The translations under genes and the position numbers were made by a program. The notes under the pieces are model-generated. The model was not told the origin of the DNA and did no database searches. It saw nothing but the letters and a program-made list of their open reading frames with translations. Source: Thermodesulfobacteriota bacterium (GTDB lineage Bacteria > Desulfobacterota_D > UBA1144 > Nemesobacterales > JAJCZQ01). Taken from it: a stretch of DNA of 64,000 nucleotides. The stretch spans positions 160,001-224,000 of the forward strand of contig OZ244044.1 in the NCBI GenBank assembly GCA_965215275.1, written 5' to 3'. Numbering within the stretch: position 1 is the first letter of the stretch; the number at the start of each line of letters is the position of its first letter. Shown one piece after another: positions 20,774 to 46,561 of the stretch.

Positions 20774-20803
20774 TTGACATTCGTTCATAATACTTGGTAA
20801 AAT
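20774..20803 (+). promoter_or_regulatory. Sigma70-type promoter of S8-like surface protein gene 1
   Basis: TTGACA (20774-20779), 18 nt spacer, TG-extended TAAAAT (20798-20803); ATG 9 nt downstream at 20813. Confidence 0.7.
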
Positions 20804-20849
20804 ATAAATGTTATGAAAAATTCAAACATAAAAACACATAGTTCCATTA

Positions 20850-20930
20850 CCCCCCCCCCCATATAAACCTGACCTTTCAGTCTGGTATAAGTATTTTTTA
20901 AGAACAATGTTTAAGATAATCCCCCCCCCC
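20850..20930 (+). repeat. Two poly-C tracts (C11 at 20850-20860, C10 at 20921-20930) in the 5' coding leader
   Basis: Seen directly; each puts a stop codon in frame, and removing one C from each joins ATG 20813 to the downstream ORF. Confidence 0.85.
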
Positions 20931-20973
20931 ATCTAAGTCATTACTTACGTTAGTTTTATTTATTCTGTTTATA

Positions 20974-23900
20974 ATGGTAATAGCTGCAAAAGGGCAGAGC
21001 AGCCTGGAAGAAACATTATCTGAATGCAGAGGTATGAGTGCAGACACGGAAGATCCGTTATACGGATGTCAGTGGCATCTGAAAAATACAGGACAGTTTA
21101 GTATTTCCGGAAATAGAATAACTGCAGGAGAAGATATAAACATAGAGGGAGTGTGGAACGAATACGTATACGGTACCGGAATTAACGTAGCAGTTGTAAG
21201 TGACGGTATCGACCTTTCACATGAGGACCTTTCTGCAAACGTACGTTCCGAACTGAACTATAGTTTTTCTGAGAAAGATAATTCTGACAGTTCATCCTTT
21301 ACCGGAACACGAGCAGCAGGTGTTATTGCAGCGGCTGGATATAACGGACTGGGAGTAAGAGGAACAGCACCTGGTGCGAGTATATACAGTTACAGGTTAT
21401 CCGGTGATCTCAGGGAAGCGGACGCGGTGGTCCGTAATAAAGAAATAACAGCAGTATCGGTTAACGGCCTGGGATCTGAGGACGGAGCTTTTTTTCAGGA
21501 GGCTTTATCTTCCTGGGAAGAAGGAGTGGAACTTGGTATAAGTAAAGGGTTTTATGGTAAAGGAGTGTTTTACGTCCGGGGAGCAGGGGACGGGCATGAG
21601 AATAACGATCAGGCTAATTTTTCTGAATATTCTAATTACTACGGCGTAACAGCCGTGTGTTCAACTGACGGTTATGGAAAAAAGAGTATTTTTTCAGAAG
21701 AGGGAGTAAATCTCTGGGTATGTGCACCTGGTTCTGATATTGTAACCACAGATAACAACAACGATTACGTTGTAACTTCCGGAACATTTCTATCAGCTTC
21801 ACAGGTCGGAGGAGTGGCTGCACTGCTGAGAGAGATAAACGGGAATCTGAGCTGGAGGGATATAAAGCTTATACTTGCGGGTTCAGCACGTCAGAACGAT
21901 TTTTCTGATATTAGCTGGGAGACAGGAGCTGTTAAATACGGCTCTGACACGGAAAGATATAATTATAATCCTAAGTATGGTTTTGGCGTGGTAGACGCAG
22001 AAGCAGCTGCAGAACTTGCAGGAAGCTGGAAAGGCGTTGGAGAGATGAGGACCGTTACCGCCTTTTCAGATAATGAAATAACAATTCCTGATGGAGAAGG
22101 AGAAGCGGATGGAATACTTACCTCCACACTTATGATCCCGGACCTGGAGGAAATATTTACGGAATTCGTGGAGGTAGAACTTGTTTTCTCTCATGACCGC
22201 TTACAGGACCTTAATATACAGATAACCTCTCCTTCCGGGACAGTATCTGAACTTGTGCGGGAGGTTGTAAGGGGATCTTCGAATGAAGAAGAAAACTGCG
22301 TCAGTTACCTGAGAAGAACACATCGTTTCGGGTCGGCTAAGCACCTCGGAGAAGACCCTTCCGGAGAATGGATCCTTAATATATCTGATACTGCTTCCGG
22401 AGATGCAGAAAACACTGTTACCTTACACTCATGGAGCATTAAGGTATACGGGCATTTTTATCAGGGAACTGGCAATGAGATAAATCCTAAACATCACAGA
22501 CTGAATTTTGGCGGTCAGACAATTCAGGATCAGGAGTATCAAGTAGAAGTTCAGATAGCACCATTAGTGCTGCCTAGGGCAACTGGAGATACTGGAATAC
22601 AATATAATTTGACTGATGATCCAAACACAGATGGATTTGCCACTAATGTACCAATTGATGGATTGAGTTTTAACCGTGGAACCAGAACTCTAAGTGGCAC
22701 ACCCACTAATACTGGGTCTTTTGATCTCATATACAGCGCTGTTGGTAGAACAGACGGTACTGCTGCTCAACTTGAGTTCAACGTTACGGTGGTAAACGTC
22801 CCTACCTTCGGAGGTCAGACCATACCAGATCATACGTATGCAAGACTTCAGACAATAAGAAATCCGTTAACTTTTCCTAAAGCAACGGGAGGGAATGCTC
22901 CCTTGACTTACAGTATAACTCCTAAGGTACAGACTGGACTTGCTTTCAGCAGTTCCACTCGGAGGATAACCGGGTCACCTGGGACTGTAAGGAGCAGAAC
23001 TGAGCATACGTATACGGTAACGGACAATGAGGGAGATACGGCTGAGATAACGTTCGGTATAACCGTAGAAGGAAATGACAGGAGGCCGCGTTTCAGAGCA
23101 GGTGAGAATATCTCTGATAAGTTTTATTTTACAGGTGTTCCGATAACGCCGGTAACGCTGCCCAGGGCAACTAACGGGAACAGTCCGATAAAATACAGTT
23201 TAAATCCTTCTTTACCAACTGGATTGAGCTTTAACGCAAATACCCGGGAGATAAGCGGGACACCGACTGCTGCAAGCAGTAACACAGAGTATACATACAG
23301 AGCATCAGACCTTGATGGAGACAGGCGTGATCTGAAGTTCAGTATCACGGTAAGGGATGCAACTGACGTACCGACCTTCGGCAGTGAGACGATAGATGAT
23401 CAGGAGCATACAGCAGGGAGTCAGATAACACCAGTAACGCTGCCTGAGGCAACATCAGGAGATGCTCCGTTAATATACCGTTTAACCCCTGCCTTGCCTG
23501 ATGGATTGATCTATAACAATATCACCGGAGTTATAAGCGGAACACCGACTGCTGCAATGTCTGAGACTATGTATACATATACAGTAACGGATAATGATGG
23601 AGATACGGATGAGCTGACGTTTAATATTGAGGTAGCAGCAAGCTTCAGCAACGTAACGATAGAAGATAAGGTGTATATAGCAGGTACAGCAGTAACGGAA
23701 ATGCTGCCTGAGGCAACTGGACATAATGGAACGGTAACCTACAGTTTAACCCCATCATTACCAACTGGACTGGACTTTAACACAGCTACCCGGGAGATAA
23801 GTGGAACACCTTCTGCTGCATCGTCTCAGACTGCTTATACATATACCGTTACTACTGGTGCAGGAGGACCTGCACGAACTTTGACGTTCAGGATAACAGT

Positions 23901-24366
23901 AGAAGAAGACAGCATGCCGGACTTCAGCGGTACAGCAATACCTGATCGGGTGTACACGGGGAGAGCAATAACGCTGCCGGAGGCAACGGGAGGGAATCCA
24001 CCAGTTACTTACAGTATAACACCTGATCTGCCAGCTGGATTGAGATTTAACGAAGTAACGCGGGAAATAAGTGGGACACCCAGGAGTGCATCAACAAGAA
24101 CTTACACGTATACGGTAACGGACAGCAATGGAGATACGGATGATGCGACTTTCATGCTCAGTGTAGAGGTTACTTCTACTCCAGGACCAACACCACCACG
24201 AGGACCAAGAACGTCAGGTACTGATTCAGGCGGAGGTGGAGGAGGATGTGCCGTCTCAGATCAGATCAGCGTTGTTTATGATATTCTCGGAGCAGTGGCA
24301 TGTCTGATACTTATACCTGTATCAGTAGTTATCAGAAGGAAGAGAAGAGCTCAGATAAAGACGTAG
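20974..24366 (+). CDS. Surface-anchored kexin/furin-like S8 protein (catalytically degenerate) with P-domain, six Ig-like repeats and C-terminal Gly-Cys-TM-basic anchor; true N-terminus lies upstream across the poly-C frameshifts
   Basis: DPLYGCQWHL, GINVAVV, NLSWRDIKLILA, YGFGVVDA, P-domain (ITSPSGT, GEDPSGEWILNISD), repeated LPEATG..YSLTP.LP.GL.FN..TREISGTP, GGGGGGCAVS..LIPVSVVIRRKRR. Confidence 0.85.
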   Translation: MVIAAKGQSSLEETLSECRGMSADTEDPLYGCQWHLKNTGQFSISGNRITAGEDINIEGVWNEYVYGTGINVAVVSDGIDLSHEDLSANVRSELNYSFSEKDNSDSSSFTGTRAAGVIAAAGYNGLGVRGTAPGASIYSYRLSGDLREADAVVRNKEITAVSVNGLGSEDGAFFQEALSSWEEGVELGISKGFYGKGVFYVRGAGDGHENNDQANFSEYSNYYGVTAVCSTDGYGKKSIFSEEGVNLWVCAPGSDIVTTDNNNDYVVTSGTFLSASQVGGVAALLREINGNLSWRDIKLILAGSARQNDFSDISWETGAVKYGSDTERYNYNPKYGFGVVDAEAAAELAGSWKGVGEMRTVTAFSDNEITIPDGEGEADGILTSTLMIPDLEEIFTEFVEVELVFSHDRLQDLNIQITSPSGTVSELVREVVRGSSNEEENCVSYLRRTHRFGSAKHLGEDPSGEWILNISDTASGDAENTVTLHSWSIKVYGHFYQGTGNEINPKHHRLNFGGQTIQDQEYQVEVQIAPLVLPRATGDTGIQYNLTDDPNTDGFATNVPIDGLSFNRGTRTLSGTPTNTGSFDLIYSAVGRTDGTAAQLEFNVTVVNVPTFGGQTIPDHTYARLQTIRNPLTFPKATGGNAPLTYSITPKVQTGLAFSSSTRRITGSPGTVRSRTEHTYTVTDNEGDTAEITFGITVEGNDRRPRFRAGENISDKFYFTGVPITPVTLPRATNGNSPIKYSLNPSLPTGLSFNANTREISGTPTAASSNTEYTYRASDLDGDRRDLKFSITVRDATDVPTFGSETIDDQEHTAGSQITPVTLPEATSGDAPLIYRLTPALPDGLIYNNITGVISGTPTAAMSETMYTYTVTDNDGDTDELTFNIEVAASFSNVTIEDKVYIAGTAVTEMLPEATGHNGTVTYSLTPSLPTGLDFNTATREISGTPSAASSQTAYTYTVTTGAGGPARTLTFRITVEEDSMPDFSGTAIPDRVYTGRAITLPEATGGNPPVTYSITPDLPAGLRFNEVTREISGTPRSASTRTYTYTVTDSNGDTDDATFMLSVEVTSTPGPTPPRGPRTSGTDSGGGGGGCAVSDQISVVYDILGAVACLILIPVSVVIRRKRRAQIKT
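22501..24170 (+). repeat. Six tandem ~90-aa putative Ig-like (He_PIG-like) domains
   Basis: Repeated F.G.TI.D..Y...LP.ATG....YS.TP....GL.F...TR.ISGTP...YTVTD..GDT....F.I.V; boundaries approximate. Confidence 0.8.
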
Positions 24367-27364: not shown

Positions 27365-27427
27365 AGTGGTTCTTGTTCAGGGTAGGGCAGGGGGGGGGGC
27401 ACGTCTCAAGTGGTTTTAACTGATTTT

Positions 27428-38063: not shown

Positions 38064-39376
38064 GGGAATTATAGTGAATAGTTGACAGGAAGAAAAATTG
38101 AAAACGGGTCAGAAAATGGGTAATATTATAGCATGGTTAGAACGATCACAAGAACTGTAAAGGCAGATAGTGTTTTTCATAAAAGGCTGGATGAATTCTT
38201 ACAACAGCTTACCGACCTGTATAACGGAGCTTTATATCACAGATTAAGATCTTATGACTGGTATGAAAAAACTATCTCTAAATACGAACAGTTTAACGAA
38301 CTAACTGAGGTCCGAGAGCAAGACAAGGAATTTGAAAAGTTTAATGTTGTAGCTCAAAGAAGCGTTCTGGAAAGACTGGATAATGCATATAGTCCTTATT
38401 TGAACTATTTAAAGAATAAAAAAGCAGGAAAGAAGGTGGGCAGACCAAAATACAAAGGTCCAAACAGACCTGTCAGAAGTTTTGAAACAAACAATTATAA
38501 AAACATTGAAAAGATCGGCAGAAGAACGTATTTAACGATAAAGGGACTTGGCAGATTATCTTTCAAAGGTTCTATGCCTGATGGAGTTGTTTTAAAACAA
38601 CCTAAAACAACAATAAGGATAGTTAAAACTGCTATAAGGATAAAGATCCAGTTTCTATGTGAGTTTACCAGCGAAAAGAAAAGACCTATGGACAGGTCCA
38701 TAGGGATCGATCTTGGAATTATAAACAGAATGGCTTTTTCAGATGGAACTAAAATACCAGGAGTTCGGTTGAACAGAAAGGAACTGAAAAGAAAGCAGAG
38801 AATTGTTTCAAGAGCGGTAAAAGGTTCTGACAGCAGAAAGAAGAAAGTTTTATCGTTAGCAAAGGAATGGGAACGAACTACCGATCGTGAAAATAACGCT
38901 ATACACAGAATGACTACCGAAATAGTAAAAAAGAACAATCATATAAAGTTGGAGGATTTAAAGATCCAAAATATGGTAAAAAATCCTTATTTAGCAAGAA
39001 GTGTAACGGAACAGCAATGGGGGAAGATTAAAACCCAACTTGACTACAAAGCCGAGATAGCTGGAGGCAAGTTAGTTTTAGTTAATTCCCATTATACAAC
39101 AATGACCTGTTCTGAATGCGGAAAGGTAAATCCAAAACTGCCTTTGTCTGAAAGAGTATTTAACTGTATATATTGCGGTTATTCAGAAGACAGGGATATA
39201 AATGCAGGTAAAAATATCAATACTCTTAATGAAGGAGACTTCATATCGGGTGGGAATAAGGTAGAAATACTCCCGATGAGTGCTAAGAGTATCAGATCAA
39301 AAGAGAACAGGGATAGAGGAACTCTGCACTCAGAACAGTACGAGTAGTTGTTTGTCAACTATTCACTATAATTCCC
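38064..39376 (+). mobile_element. Non-autonomous TIR element carrying tnpB (IS1595-like ends)
   Basis: Perfect 24-bp TIR GGGAATTATAGTGAATAGTTGACA at 38064-38087 and 39353-39376; flanking 8-mers TTATATAA/TTACATAA (7/8 identical). Confidence 0.85.
38133..39347 (+). CDS. tnpB: RNA-guided endonuclease TnpB family protein
   Basis: RuvC-I GIDLG, RuvC-II LEDL, CSECG..CIYCG zinc finger, RuvC-III DRDINA. Confidence 0.92.
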   Translation: MVRTITRTVKADSVFHKRLDEFLQQLTDLYNGALYHRLRSYDWYEKTISKYEQFNELTEVREQDKEFEKFNVVAQRSVLERLDNAYSPYLNYLKNKKAGKKVGRPKYKGPNRPVRSFETNNYKNIEKIGRRTYLTIKGLGRLSFKGSMPDGVVLKQPKTTIRIVKTAIRIKIQFLCEFTSEKKRPMDRSIGIDLGIINRMAFSDGTKIPGVRLNRKELKRKQRIVSRAVKGSDSRKKKVLSLAKEWERTTDRENNAIHRMTTEIVKKNNHIKLEDLKIQNMVKNPYLARSVTEQQWGKIKTQLDYKAEIAGGKLVLVNSHYTTMTCSECGKVNPKLPLSERVFNCIYCGYSEDRDINAGKNINTLNEGDFISGGNKVEILPMSAKSIRSKENRDRGTLHSEQYE

Positions 39377-42417: not shown

Positions 42418-43706
42418 GGGAACTATATACTTAAGTATCCAGTGGATACTAAAAGTTCTCTTTGACGAGTCATAGACCAGTTCCTGTCCCCAACCCCTCT
42501 GCAGTCTCCCCGTCCAATCACCCCTTTCCCTGAGGCTATAATTTGTTTTATTCCAGTTTCCAACTGGTTAAATGCAGCATTTAAGTCAGCATTAACTTCA
42601 TAACCGCAAGATGTACACTTAAATCTGGATTGCGATCTTCTGTTATCAGGAGATCTGTGTCCGCATTCAGAACAGGTTTGACTGGTATATGCAGCTGGAA
42701 CTTCTTCAGTAGCATTACACTTGTAATCCAGCATCCTTTTCATATCAAACCAGCCAGTAGCACGAATGTTCCTGTTCATCTTGCGAAAGTTCTTCCATTT
42801 CTTTCTGGCTGTCATCCCTTGTGTATTAAGTCTCTCAAGTACAGGAACATCATAAAGATCGGAGATCTTTCTTGTAACCTGATGTCTCCAGTCCTTCTGT
42901 CTGTTTGCCAGCTTCCTATGAAGTTTCTGTAACCTTTCCTTAGTAATTCTCCACCTGTTACTTCTCTCTTCCTGACGTGCAAGTTTCTTTTGGTATCTGC
43001 GTATCTTTGCTTCTGTAAGTTCATCATCAGATAACTTAAAAACCTGTCCGTCAGACAGCGTAACCTGTCTTGAATTCCTGTCCATTGCTACAACTCTTAC
43101 TTCTTTCTTTTCCTTTTTAGTTTCATCTATCTCATAGGTAAGGTACGCATACCACTTACCGCATTCCTTCCTTATCCTGCCAGAAAGGAACTTTCCATCA
43201 GGATATGGATTCTTACCTGCCAACCTGAACCATCCAACCTTTAAAATACGGAGCCACTTATTATCTGACAGTTTAGCTGACTGATAATTTACCGGGAATG
43301 AAGGAGTGGTTTTTAATTTACTCTTGAATTTAGGTTGTCCCGATTTTCCATCCCTGTATCTCTTACAGGCATTTGTAAGGTCCAGTAAATAATGCTGAAG
43401 TATGTAAGCAGATGCTTCTTTCAGAAAGTAGTTCTTTTCTTCTTTCTTCAATTCTCTCAAATCGTTACCTAAACTCTCATGACCATAACCATCATTAAAA
43501 TCATTATCCTTTAAATTTCCCACGAATTGATTCCAGATAAACCTGCAACAGCCAGCAGTAGAGGAAAGTTTATGAAACTTCTCCCTGTTGTTTGATCTCA
43601 ACCTCTGCCTTACCGTTCTTATTGTCTTACCTTCTTTCATATTTGTAATTTTACCTTATTCCCTTGCTTTTTTTAAGTAGTTTGGATAGTTAAGTATATA
43701 GTCCCC
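42418..43706 (-). mobile_element. Non-autonomous TIR element carrying tnpB (IS1595-like ends)
   Basis: 24-bp TIRs GGGAACTATATACTTAAGTATCCA (42418-42441) and, on the minus strand, GGGGACTATATACTTAACTATCCA (43683-43706), 22/24 identical; perfect 8-bp TSD TTGTCAAT at 42410-42417 and 43707-43714. Confidence 0.9.
42423..43640 (-). CDS. tnpB: RNA-guided endonuclease TnpB family protein
   Basis: GCCRFIWN, PKFKSK, RuvC-I AMDRN, RuvC-II LERL, TSQTCSECG..FKCTSCG, RuvC-III NADLNAA. Confidence 0.9.
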   Translation of the reverse strand: MKEGKTIRTVRQRLRSNNREKFHKLSSTAGCCRFIWNQFVGNLKDNDFNDGYGHESLGNDLRELKKEEKNYFLKEASAYILQHYLLDLTNACKRYRDGKSGQPKFKSKLKTTPSFPVNYQSAKLSDNKWLRILKVGWFRLAGKNPYPDGKFLSGRIRKECGKWYAYLTYEIDETKKEKKEVRVVAMDRNSRQVTLSDGQVFKLSDDELTEAKIRRYQKKLARQEERSNRWRITKERLQKLHRKLANRQKDWRHQVTRKISDLYDVPVLERLNTQGMTARKKWKNFRKMNRNIRATGWFDMKRMLDYKCNATEEVPAAYTSQTCSECGHRSPDNRRSQSRFKCTSCGYEVNADLNAAFNQLETGIKQIIASGKGVIGRGDCRGVGDRNWSMTRQRELLVSTGYLSI

Positions 43707-43918: not shown

Positions 43919-46372
43919 TCAGGTCTTTATCCGAGACCTAATCTTCCTTCTTATCACAACAGATACAGGTATAAGCATCAGCGATGCCACTGCTGTGAGC
44001 ATATCAGGAACGGCTTCGCTCTGACCGGAGACCGCACATCCTCCTCCGCCTGTATCACTACCTGATGACGTTGGTCTTTGTGTCGGTGGTCTTGTTGTTG
44101 GTGGGTCTGTCGGTCCTGGCGGCGTAGTTGTTACCCTGATCGTAAATCTCAGCTCATCCGTATCTCCATCTTCGTCCGTTACCTTATATGTATAACTGCC
44201 AGAAGATACAGCAGTCGGTGTTCCGCTGATAACTCTGTCAGTTTCACTGAAAGCAAGTCCAGCAGGTAAACCAGTAGCAGGTAAAAGAGGGGACAGGCTG
44301 TAGGTCAGTTCTCCATTCCCTGCTGTTGCCTCAGGCAGTGTTTCTTTTATTGCAGTTCCCGGCACGTAATTCTTATCTGGTATGGTCCAGTTGTTAAACG
44401 TCGGCGTGTCCCCAGACATATGACCATAGACCTTTATGTTCCATGAGTGTAAGGTCCCCGTACCTGCAATTGAATTGTTAGTTATCTTCAAGGTCCACTC
44501 TCCAGCAGGGTCCGTTCCTAAGTGATTGGCTAAACCAAAACGATGTTCCCTGCCTGTGTACTTAAAGTCGTCTACAGTAAGAGATCCGTCAGATAAATGT
44601 GATAACGCTTCTGATGCATATTCCTCAGTGAGTTTTGACACGGTAGTATCGTCAGGAGAAGTTATTTCTATATCTAAAAAAGGAAAGAAAGGATGGGTAA
44701 AATTGATACCTATCTCTATAAATTCCGTAAATACCTCAGTGTCTGGTATATCTATATCAGGTACTGTCAGTGTGAAAACAACTGAAACGTCTTCTGCGTT
44801 TTCCCCCGTTGTGAAGTCTGGTATAACCGTATTGATATTACCCGAGGAAACCGTCACGGGTTTCATTTGCGGTGGAACGTTGGTCCAGCTTTCTGCAAGT
44901 TCCACTGCAGCTGCAGCGTCTACTGTGCCAAAAGTATCTACTGTGCCAAAACCGAACTTTGGATTGTAAAAATAATACTCTGAATCAGAACCGTATTGAA
45001 GTGCTACTCTCTTCCATTCTTGGGTATCACCGGAACGGGAGCCCTGGCTGGCTGAACCTGCCAAGATCAGTTTCAGGTCTCGCCAGCTAAGATCACTGTT
45101 TACCTCTCTCATCAGTGCTGCAATTCCTGAAACGACCGCTGCTGAATTTGACGTTCCAGGGAACTCAAAAGTATAACCGTCGTTATTGTCGGTAGTTACA
45201 ATACCGGAACCCGGTGCACATACCCATAGATTGTATCCCTCTTCTGAAAAGGAACTCTTAGTAACAGCGAGCGCATCCCTATCGATCTCTGATGAACATA
45301 CGGTAGTTACTGCGTAGTAGTTGGAATACTCATCAAAATTAGCCTGGTCTGATCCTTCATGTCCGTCCCCTGCCGCCCATACGTAAAACACCCCTTTACC
45401 ACCAAATCCTTCTCTTATACCCGTTCTCACCCCTTCTTCCCACTCTGATGAAGCCTCTGTAAGAACGGGAAGGTCCTTCGGTCCCCAGTTGTTGACCGAT
45501 ACAGCAGTTATATCCTTATTACGGACCATGGCGTCCTTTGCATTAGCATCACTGAAGTTACCAGCTAAATTATAACTGTAGATGTTTGCCTCAGGTGCTA
45601 CACCTCTTACTCCAAGGCTGTTATCACCCACTGCTGCTATAATGCCAGCTACACGTGTTCCACGACCACTGAAAGGACTGTACAGATCACCATTCCCAGA
45701 GTAATCATGAGAAAGTGTGGTATCTACATTGTCAGCAAGGTCCTCATGGTCTGTGTCCATACCATGATCTACCACCGCTACGTTAATCCCAGCACCAAAT
45801 ACGGCATCATCCCAGACATCTTCTATGTTTATGTCTATATCTTGTCTGGCGGAGGTTTGGAATACCTTATCGCCACCTAATATTACATCAACCGCTGGAG
45901 ATTCCAGATACCACTGACAGCCGTATAAGGGATCATTTGGAAAATTGGTAGTAATAATTGAACAGGTTTCAAAGAGTTGATTAGAATCAGCTAATTGAAC
46001 TTGAACTCGATAGGATGTAGCACCACTGCTTCCTACAACGATATAGTACGTTCCCCGTCTGAGGTGAGTTTGTATAGATATATTTCCTAGTAGCCTTTCA
46101 TCACTTGGGTCCACTACTTCAGTAGTACTTGCTATCAGATCATCATTACTGTCACATACCTGTAGGCTGTATTCCTGATCATTGGAGAAGGGGAAGGTTA
46201 CCAATATATCTGCAATAAAATCTCCATTTATGTTTATCTGAAAGTAATGCGGATCAGCACCGGCAGCTAAACTTCCATTGTGTGTTGGTCCTTGCACTCT
46301 CAACGTAGCTTCGGTCGTTGCACTGGAGTCACAGTTGTTAATGCTGGTCTTACCATATGCACTAATGGACAC
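43919..46372 (-). CDS. Surface-anchored kexin/furin-like S8 protein (catalytic His replaced) with N-terminal PPC-like domain, P-domain, one Ig-like repeat and Gly-Cys-TM-basic anchor; true N-terminus lies upstream across a poly-C frameshift
   Basis: DPLYGCQWYL, VAVVDHG, GRGTRVAG, GTSNSA, DLSWRDLKLILA, GTDPAGEWTLKI, GGGGCAVS..LIPVSVVIRRKIR. Confidence 0.85.
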   Translation of the reverse strand: MSISAYGKTSINNCDSSATTEATLRVQGPTHNGSLAAGADPHYFQININGDFIADILVTFPFSNDQEYSLQVCDSNDDLIASTTEVVDPSDERLLGNISIQTHLRRGTYYIVVGSSGATSYRVQVQLADSNQLFETCSIITTNFPNDPLYGCQWYLESPAVDVILGGDKVFQTSARQDIDINIEDVWDDAVFGAGINVAVVDHGMDTDHEDLADNVDTTLSHDYSGNGDLYSPFSGRGTRVAGIIAAVGDNSLGVRGVAPEANIYSYNLAGNFSDANAKDAMVRNKDITAVSVNNWGPKDLPVLTEASSEWEEGVRTGIREGFGGKGVFYVWAAGDGHEGSDQANFDEYSNYYAVTTVCSSEIDRDALAVTKSSFSEEGYNLWVCAPGSGIVTTDNNDGYTFEFPGTSNSAAVVSGIAALMREVNSDLSWRDLKLILAGSASQGSRSGDTQEWKRVALQYGSDSEYYFYNPKFGFGTVDTFGTVDAAAAVELAESWTNVPPQMKPVTVSSGNINTVIPDFTTGENAEDVSVVFTLTVPDIDIPDTEVFTEFIEIGINFTHPFFPFLDIEITSPDDTTVSKLTEEYASEALSHLSDGSLTVDDFKYTGREHRFGLANHLGTDPAGEWTLKITNNSIAGTGTLHSWNIKVYGHMSGDTPTFNNWTIPDKNYVPGTAIKETLPEATAGNGELTYSLSPLLPATGLPAGLAFSETDRVISGTPTAVSSGSYTYKVTDEDGDTDELRFTIRVTTTPPGPTDPPTTRPPTQRPTSSGSDTGGGGCAVSGQSEAVPDMLTAVASLMLIPVSVVIRRKIRSRIKT

Positions 46373-46410: not shown

Positions 46411-46495
46411 GGGGGGGGGGGGAGAAACTTCAACATTATTATATTATTGTACTTATGTCCAGCTGAAAGGTCAAGTATATATGGAGGGGGGGGGG
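46411..46495 (-). repeat. Two poly-C tracts on the sense strand (G12 at 46411-46422, G10 at 46486-46495 on +)
   Basis: Seen directly; the first tract (C10) is in frame and the second (C12) leads into TAA; C11 would restore the signal peptide. Confidence 0.85.
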
Positions 46496-46532
46496 TAACA
46501 GAGATACGCGTTTTTAAACTCATAATAGTGAT

Positions 46533-46561
46533 ATTCTACTTCTGTTCTGCTGTAATGTCAA
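46533..46561 (-). promoter_or_regulatory. Sigma70-type promoter of S8-like surface protein gene 2
   Basis: TTGACA-N17-TAGAAT on the minus strand; ATG 9 nt downstream at 46523. Confidence 0.75.

Follow-up and report, generated by a model that had tools for sequence, protein, structure and literature searches.

Phase variation has been described mostly from human pathogens and mostly with one repeat per gene; the poly-C paralogue family of Chlamydia pneumoniae and pilC of Neisseria are presumably parallels of the kind treated here. The present analysis concerns a surface-protein gene and its 5' leader in a stretch of 64,000 nucleotides (nt) of DNA from a Thermodesulfobacteriota bacterium (contig OZ244044.1, positions 160,001 to 224,000), hereafter the window, in which two poly-C tracts stand in series ahead of the gene. 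The leader belongs to a genuine contingency system that extends over the whole genome; the kind of system is known, the two-module organisation of the leader unusual. It is interpreted, with somewhat better than even confidence, as a two-stage slipped-strand phase-variation switch with three-level logic, resting OFF, before a surface protein that lacks the protease triad.

Among the closest described systems are those of Campylobacter jejuni and Neisseria (hpuAB, hmbR), in which, as given in the accessible portion of PMC4235727, genes for surface proteins and methyltransferases carry G/C runs of about 9-11 close to their 5' end, with one ON for every two OFF states; the tracts described below resemble them in these respects. 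The same portion gives 12-27 tracts in C. jejuni genomes, whereas 139 were counted here in 2 Mb; furthermore, mismatch repair genes are present here, two serial tracts precede 28 genes of one family, and switching is what we infer. Two repeats on one surface gene, governing on/off state and level, are described for sabA of Helicobacter pylori, which combines a T-tract beside the -35 with a CT repeat in the coding start (PMC4081817, available excerpt), whereas in the present leader both repeats are poly-C, both lie in the translated frame and both apparently stem from a duplicated promoter-start-tract module. The sabA-type pairing of a repeat beside a -35 with a frame-setting coding repeat is reproduced here in its geometry only, the end of tract 1 lying 8 nt from the second -35 in 25 of the 28 double leaders. 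Alternative starts around a repeat, with graded output, are known from lic2A of Haemophilus influenzae, cited as a multi-start exception in the same portion of PMC4235727, and from meningococcal repeats, 19 of 55 of which are flanked by several ATGs according to an excerpt of PMC5084427. Those cases involve one repeat, whereas here a separate tract and promoter-like site go with each of the two starts, and stop-coupling at the second ATG is predicted. Several starts upstream of one repeat are not the arrangement of the double leaders, where tract 1 separates the two starts; that layout occurs only in two single-tract paralogues (G000:401573 and 1533632, where G000 is the genome of the window and 'G000:n' gives a genome position). 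A literature search on phase variation in Dadabacteria, on homopolymeric tracts of sponge symbionts and on dual tracts with a signal peptide, in which subscription journals were largely uncovered, returned no paper, and no title or opening of an abstract among the papers listed describes this design.

The features of the first locus are as follows.

20774-20803 (+): P1, a sigma-70-type promoter-like site, TTGACA (20774), 18 nt, TG-TAAAAT (TAAAAT at 20798-20803); score 11/12
20813-20815 (+): ATG1, 9 nt past the -10 box, with a putative transcript start some 3 nt upstream placed from geometry; no Shine-Dalgarno
20850-20860 (+): tract 1, a run of C11 now in the early-stop state, its stop codon (20864-20866) lying 40 nt short of ATG2
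20869-20897 (+): P2, a degenerate promoter-like site, CTGACC, 17 nt, TATTTT; score 8/12; 8 nt past tract 1
20899-20901 (+): TAA, encountered when tract 1 is C9 or C12 and predicted to couple translation to ATG2, which follows after 5 nt
20907-20909 (+): ATG2, 9 nt past the -10-like box of P2
20921-20930 (+): tract 2, a run of C10 that is out of frame and leads to a stop at 20934-20936
20932-20994 (+): signal-peptide h- and c-regions, hydropathy up to 3.7, entered only via tract 2; putative cleavage site
20916-20941 (-): antisense look-alike, around tract 2, of G-spacer promoters found in relatives; ATGACT, 5 nt, G-run, GATTAT-like
20974-24366 (+): main open reading frame (ORF) of 1130 amino acids (aa), kexin/furin-like S8 domain, P-domain and five He_PIG stretches; Ser76/Thr110/Phe272 replace Asp/His/Ser
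24232-24363 (+): C-terminal Gly-run/Cys, transmembrane segment and Arg cluster, a Cys-CTERM-like sorting signal

The initial annotation of this DNA had the frame from ATG 20813 stopping through C11, with both tracts out of frame as assembled. Recomputation agrees: the product is of 17 aa, all quoted peptides are correct, and C11 and C10 each break the frame. It had further proposed that C10 in tract 1 reads on and that C9 or C12 in tract 2 fuses a signal peptide to the 1130-aa ORF, which is borne out by computing all 64 pairs of tract lengths (7-14 by 7-14). The full product (1182-1185 aa) arises in six of them, with tract 1 at 7, 10 or 13 and tract 2 at 9 or 12, while from ATG 20907 the sole requirement for reaching the main ORF is that tract 2 be 9 or 12. 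Tract 1 itself has three outcomes: with C9/12 a stop is met 5 nt before ATG2, with C8/11 40 nt before it, and C10/13 reads through. The gene thus carries non-triplet repeats (C11, C10) that set the frame in its 5' coding region, as do genes under translational phase variation by simple sequence repeats. ATG 20974 was rejected as the true start: most of the hydrophobic stretch precedes it, and many paralogues have a Leu codon there.

Close tract pairs occur 28 times in the genome, all in front of paralogues of the same S8 family. P1 scores 10-11/12 in all 28 double leaders, and ATG1 lies 38 or 39 nt from the start of its -35 in every one, so that the predicted 5' leader measures about 3 nt. At the matching geometry (-35-like hexamer, 17 nt, -10-like hexamer, 9 nt, ATG2) P2 scores 6-10/12 (mean 7.5; 8/12 at the first locus and 10/12 at the second locus of the window), the background over all 56,633 genomic ATGs being 3.3, with 0.57% reaching 8. 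In the two copies where it has decayed least, module 2 can be aligned with module 1 from the same loci (z 7.6-7.7) as well as with the leaders of five methyltransferase-type genes (z 4.4-8.9), and module 2 of the first locus aligns base by base with that of the second. By its sequence, the leader is a tandem arrangement of two homologous modules, each made of promoter, ATG and poly-C. This duplication, its 28-fold repetition and the loss of the protease triad go beyond what the initial annotation contained. The second locus of the window comprises two features.

46411-46561 (-): second double leader, with P1, ATG 46523, C10 (46486-46495), P2 (TTGACC/TACAAT), ATG 46436 and C12 (46411-46422, out of frame)
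43919-46372 (-): second S8/P-domain/He_PIG paralogue, triad columns Asp/Arg/Ser

The spacer between the tracts is open only in the frame of ATG2 in all 28 copies. None of 61 variant spacer bases creates a stop in that frame (P = 0.0099 under a null that ignores the tree), yet 54 of the 61 variant codons alter the residue, so that the openness of the spacer seems to be selected and its sequence not. In 27 of 28 copies the second frame has its first stop ending -1 to +5 nt from ATG2, and this stop takes three different forms; the third-frame stop lies 34-40 nt upstream of ATG2 in 25 and overlaps it in three; and ATG2 itself is kept in all 28. At their present lengths, tract 1 is in the coupled state in 14 copies, fused in eight and early in six. 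Tract 2 is in frame in five of the 28, and four of these are exactly coupled-plus-ON; the single fully fused, in-frame copy (G000:1028883) has been called as a 1183-aa fusion. Family-wide, the last tract is in frame in 9-11 of 49 copies, depending on the ATG used by two of them. Tract lengths range from 8 to 13 among the copies and both off-frames are present; in nine copies a C-to-A substitution at the edge of the tract has made C9, the modal length, out of C10 while the frame stays OFF. Behind the second tract, 815-1377 codons are open in 27 of 28 copies and 471 in the remaining one. The single-tract paralogue at G000:652456 shares 74 of 76 upstream and 55 of 60 downstream bases with the first-locus leader, and a quick tree places it within the double-tract copies; for these reasons it has likely lost module 2 by a deletion between the tracts. 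Single-tract copies without any P2 exist as well. RNA structure in the leader or spacer was rejected as a mechanism: the leader has a z of 0.42 and the 28 spacers a median z of 0.38, none conserved, and no Rfam match was found in the leader at E up to 1.

The genome is a single contig of 1.99 Mb (42.5% G+C, 99.87% complete) with 78 C/G runs of 6, none of 7 against about 7.7 expected, and 139 of at least 8 against fewer than one expected, the modal length of the long runs being 9. The leaders of the S8 family hold 78 of the 139 long runs, and others lie in TPR and methyltransferase-like genes, as read from translations; the tracts are thus both over-represented and concentrated in surface and restriction-modification genes. 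Frame breaks stand to intact ORFs as 18:14 at long C/G runs, as 19:147 at A/T runs of 8-9 and as 3:57 at C/G runs of 6. The window itself has five C/G runs of at least 7, including the second pair at 46411-46495 (-) before a paralogue.

Slipped-strand switching of the tracts, which the initial annotation had considered established for such genes, is judged very probable, and we infer that it is reversible from tract statistics, placement and repetition of the design, no switching having been observed. On this interpretation the C-runs would gain or lose bases during replication, and P1 would yield a near-leaderless mRNA translated from ATG 20813. Tract 2 would act as the master on/off switch, since every route to the signal peptide crosses it, and tract 1 would set the level in three states. 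At C10/13 it would allow read-through into a fusion with a long signal peptide; at C9/12 the stop 5 nt before ATG 20907 would permit coupled re-initiation; and at C8/11 the stop about 40 nt early would leave a weak output from the degenerate P2 alone. From the present C11/C10, two slips would be needed for P1-driven expression. With some 50 paralogues, each cell would show a small and changing subset of surface variants, probably serving to vary adhesion or to evade recognition by phage or host. If this holds, serial repeats together with translational coupling would determine how rare the ON state is and also how strong the expression; each of the 28 double leaders may be viewed as a small logic circuit that has nine frame states, in a family that makes up 9.3% of a 2-Mb genome.

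Several observations weigh against this interpretation. At the first locus, module 2 has a z of only 1.2-1.6 to module 1 and up to 4.4 to the methyltransferase leaders, and P2, at 8/12 only, was not detected by a promoter scanner. Near-leaderless starts show no clear genome-wide enrichment, and the predicted re-initiation would take place at an ATG2 that has no Shine-Dalgarno. The excess of the coupled state is marginal (P = 0.05), and that of OFF states over the one-in-three expectation for ON gives P = 0.016 (9/49) or 0.068 (11/49) among related copies; likewise the 28 double leaders are related, so that counts over them are not independent, the spacer null included. In five paralogues the ORF is moreover split at a point outside any leader tract. 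MutS (868-aa frame) and MutL (617-aa frame) are intact, which should slow switching; loss of mismatch repair was accordingly rejected as a driver. Two comparisons with contigs of sequencing runs, which drop rare variants, gave no locus-specific tract-length variant, and the C9, C10 and C12 alleles seen in contigs are all explained by pooled paralogues. Among five tract-bearing orthologue pairs with another assembly, judged from gene calls and not DNA, both members bear the leader in two, both lack it in two, and one pair differs, so that four of five share a state. The one differing pair itself counts in favour of the interpretation, as does a methyltransferase orthologue in the same-genus genome G001 (75.5% identity) that has C9 where G000 has C13.

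The initial annotation had offered two readings of the serial tracts, an AND gate that makes expression rare and tuning of ATG 20907 through an upstream ORF, and had named homopolymer assembly error as what would overturn both. In its strict form the AND gate supposes that P2 is dead, that re-initiation does not occur and that the protein is made only as a long-signal-peptide fusion with both tracts in frame. The single open spacer frame in 28/28 copies, with stops selected against, is what it predicts, and the logic does hold for the fusion from ATG 20813; the decay of P2 in the main subfamily (6-8/12), the ATG2 without Shine-Dalgarno and the single fully ON copy are also in its favour. However, ATG2 is kept throughout with an adjacent stop in 27/28 copies, P2 is near-consensus (9-10/12) in three copies, and four copies are exactly coupled-plus-ON. 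The strict form is probably too simple, because ATG2 heads its own promoter-like module and the commonest state of tract 1 stops beside it, and we regard it as unlikely. A graded switch is likelier, because tract 1 yields a fusion, a stop by ATG 20907 or an early stop, and upstream-ORF tuning, the second of the two readings, fits both the stop beside ATG2 (27/28) and the commonest tract-1 state (14/28). Level might instead be set in DNA, P2 driving the gene from ATG2 with tract 2 as on/off switch and tract 1 tuning P2 or the interplay of P1 and P2, the upstream frame being incidental. The distance of 8 nt from tract 1 to the -35 of P2 in 25/28 copies and the sabA precedent (PMC4081817, as excerpted) agree with such a rheostat, which is nevertheless improbable given that P1 is much nearer consensus than P2, that the spacer frame is kept open and that some single-tract copies do without P2 entirely. 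An antisense role for tract 2 is still more doubtful. On the minus strand it resembles the 57 and 55 promoters of the form TTGACW-N-G-run-TANNNT in the relatives G011 and G025; one paralogue matches their pattern exactly, and a random site would show TGACW at that distance with P = 0.0055, so the run could also be the spacer of a length-gated promoter that interferes with P1 transcriptionally at 11-13. The likeness was found post hoc among about 27 tract contexts, however; a preceding TA is usual in any case in 13 of the 27 clusters, the present lengths mostly give a spacer of 13-15 nt, and the -35-like bases are lost in several subfamilies. It may be relic, function or coincidence.

Explanations without switching are improbable too. 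The out-of-frame copies could be pseudogenes or gene-conversion donors, with the tracts as break sites; the missing triad in 49 of 50 copies, the further splits in five and a catalytic domain identical in two copies, which suggests conversion, all suit such an archive. Decay would scatter the breaks, however, whereas every copy has a strong P1 and long frames remain open behind 27 of 28 second tracts, so that a silent archive is quite improbable. Most copies being one base off frame, programmed transcriptional slippage or ribosomal frameshifting on the C-runs could give constant low expression of all of them with the DNA unchanged; yet the lengths vary from 8 to 13 with both off-frames, no conserved RNA structure is found, and slippage is reported chiefly for A/T runs in the part of PMC5084427 available, which leaves this highly improbable. 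Homopolymer assembly error, with the gene really in frame, is largely refuted and scarcely credible now. G/C runs of at least 8 are indeed error-prone and break contigs (PMC4235727, accessible portion), and among the matches listed no contig spans the first locus's own tracts; that the flank of its tract 1 is missing there carries no weight, because a filter removes records. On this view, however, about 80% of some 50 genes must contain errors that run in both directions and yet meet at 9-10; nine copies are held in the OFF frame by C-to-A substitution, and A/T runs leave ORFs unbroken. Contigs of runs X1, X3 and X4 belong to the same strain, with no differences over contigs of 2.4-8.3 kb and one gap in a 4.9-kb X4 contig, and an X4 contig across both second-locus tracts repeats G12 and G10 with no difference or gap. 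Assembly error is unlikely on account of this separate run; X4 is perhaps the source sample and hence not fully independent, a further point that weakens the case for the graded two-stage switch. X8 is another strain, its contig ending just before the tract. The comparison of tract lengths proposed earlier thus yielded no length variant in contigs and a repeat of the second-locus lengths.

The gene behind the proposed graded switch encodes a protein with an S8 domain (PF00082, 67-311; closest to furin and kexin, furin E 5e-34) followed by a P-domain (PF01483, 397-490), the order found in active kexin/furin-like enzymes. The Asp-His-Ser triad reads Ser/Thr/Phe and the oxyanion Asn is Asp, and on this ground the product is predicted to be a pseudoprotease. 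BLAST gives 64 family ORFs, which amount to the 9.3% of the genome given above, and 57 hold the catalytic domain; in 50 of these 57 a C-run lies no more than 150 nt from where the open frame begins at its 5' end, double in 28 and single in 22. An intact triad is missing in 49 of these 50, and the 49 form one clade (SH-aLRT 98 in a quick tree), so that triad loss counts as one event. Among the other seven paralogues six keep Asp-His-Ser, and the remaining one is interrupted by an internal G13 and carries Gly in place of the Asp; the triad is also kept in all seven Dehalococcoidia rows included, of 24 loci fetched. The link between tract and triad is imperfect, three of seven triad-intact copies carrying a tract (two internal in frame, one in an upstream ORF). 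Automatic annotation places the start of such genes downstream of the signal peptide and labels them proteases, and both assignments are wrong. One S8 paralogue has coding-strand poly-G, with G11 just before the ATG and an internal out-of-frame G13 (G000:518332 and 518941).

The tail combines a Cys motif, a transmembrane helix and an Arg cluster, as in the MYXO- and JDVT-CTERM sorting signals, and one Rce1-like (CPBP) protease, the only one found, lies just upstream of an S8 paralogue (G000:680821-681465; L110:1486-2130, minus strand); Cys-CTERM signals that work with myxosortases are described in the part of bioRxiv 10.1101/2023.06.07.544157 available. Here, in contrast, no hidden Markov model matches at cut-off, the DP motif of JDVT is missing and a Pro in the helix argues against MYXO-CTERM. 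NF033191 gave no match in the tail, though it gave none in control genomes either, and the TraA C-terminus matched only weakly (E 0.0088). The Rce1-like protein best matches myxosortase models below their cut-off (Mrt_core 65 bits, cut-off 100) and is a candidate sorting enzyme for the Gly-Cys-transmembrane-Arg tails. From this tail and the neighbouring protease, anchoring of the S8 paralogues at the surface is likely. An expansion of exported subtilisin-like genes in a symbiont is known from the sponge archaeon Ca. Nitrosospongia ianthellae, with 11 S8A genes (PMC6790972, available text); the present family differs in its 57 copies, mostly triad-less, and in its Ig repeats, C-terminal anchor and poly-C switches.

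By its DnaJ, the named relatives of the bacterium are a Thermodesulfobacteriota bacterium (64%), bacterium HR37 (55%) and Ca. Dadabacteria (54%), which suggests a lineage akin to Dadabacteria. It presumably has a sponge-type symbiotic habitat, judging by the groups of its relatives. Forty related genomes were compared, and pattern scans covered 41 including G000. The double-tract leader was not found in the 40 relatives by DNA search nor in metagenome contigs by pattern search; the tract-pair pattern occurs at six places in two of the relatives, all unrelated C-rich stretches without such a leader. S8 matches number 0-8 per relative against 44 scored in G000, and their absence from G001 is uninformative since that assembly comprises 190 contigs at 80% completeness. 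The nearest S8 domains from elsewhere belong to metagenome-assembled genomes of Dehalococcoidia (38-49% identity). At the outside loci of S8 relatives, 6 of 63 hold a C/G run of at least 8, three inside the translated S8 domain and three about 2 kb upstream. Among short proteins, the fused leader had three matches, two from G000 and one at 52% identity, as read from the match list only.

Some relatives have switches of another type. The pattern TTGACW-N4-8-G9-N0-4-TANNNT occurs in 8 of the 41 genomes (57 in G011, 55 in G025, six in G001, two in G021 and one each in four genomes), with no match in controls. Such promoters with spacer runs of G9-G16 (loci L061-L067, L073, L076 and L083-L107 in G011, G025 and G001) stand mostly before lipoprotein paralogues where read, lipoprotein-like ORFs following at eight of nine G011 loci read and four of six in G001. 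Since most spacers measure 15 nt in G011 and between 18 and 20 nt in G025, the two sets appear to rest OFF from opposite sides. The leader system of the S8 family points to a strong diversifying pressure, from phage or host recognition, on a little-studied lineage in which two relatives have 55-57 switches of the promoter type. More tentatively, a portable cassette of promoter, leaderless ATG and poly-C, shared with mobile methyltransferase genes, may have been stacked twice into a three-level stochastic gate that collapses to one tract by deletion; it would run a 50-gene wardrobe of dead proteases, with equally large lipoprotein wardrobes under promoter-spacer G-tracts in sister lineages within its order, and so amount to antigenic variation of the pathogen type, beyond the scale of C. 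jejuni, in bacteria that are uncultured and likely symbionts.

Other tracts were also observed. Five methyltransferase-like genes or fragments (G000:384592, 496990, 828763, 899109 and 1401695) carry the promoter-ATG-poly-C module, one with a tract of C26. A TPR-like repeat family, recognised by eye in translations, has C9-C11 tracts inside the genes, some 100 codons from the start, and most of these coincide with frame breaks (G000:19539, 20737, 31545, 1068992, 1899949, 1901573, 1914729 and 1964984). TA precedes 58% of the C-runs of at least 8, 8-9% of C4/C5 and 2 of 78 C6 runs, and is the majority upstream dinucleotide in 13 of the 27 context clusters of long C-runs; the plus strand carries 109 of the 139 long C-runs across both GC-skew halves. 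A run of C56 precedes a 384-codon open frame in G005 (L104:1800) and is possibly an assembly artefact. Within the window, a G10 (27390-27399) lies between convergent gloB-like and SDR genes, and the X3 contig begins exactly there, which carries no weight since contigs often break at such runs (PMC4235727, accessible portion). Two TnpB-family genes of multi-copy IS200/IS605-type elements, at 38133-39347 (+) and 42423-43640 (-), lie near the second S8 gene.

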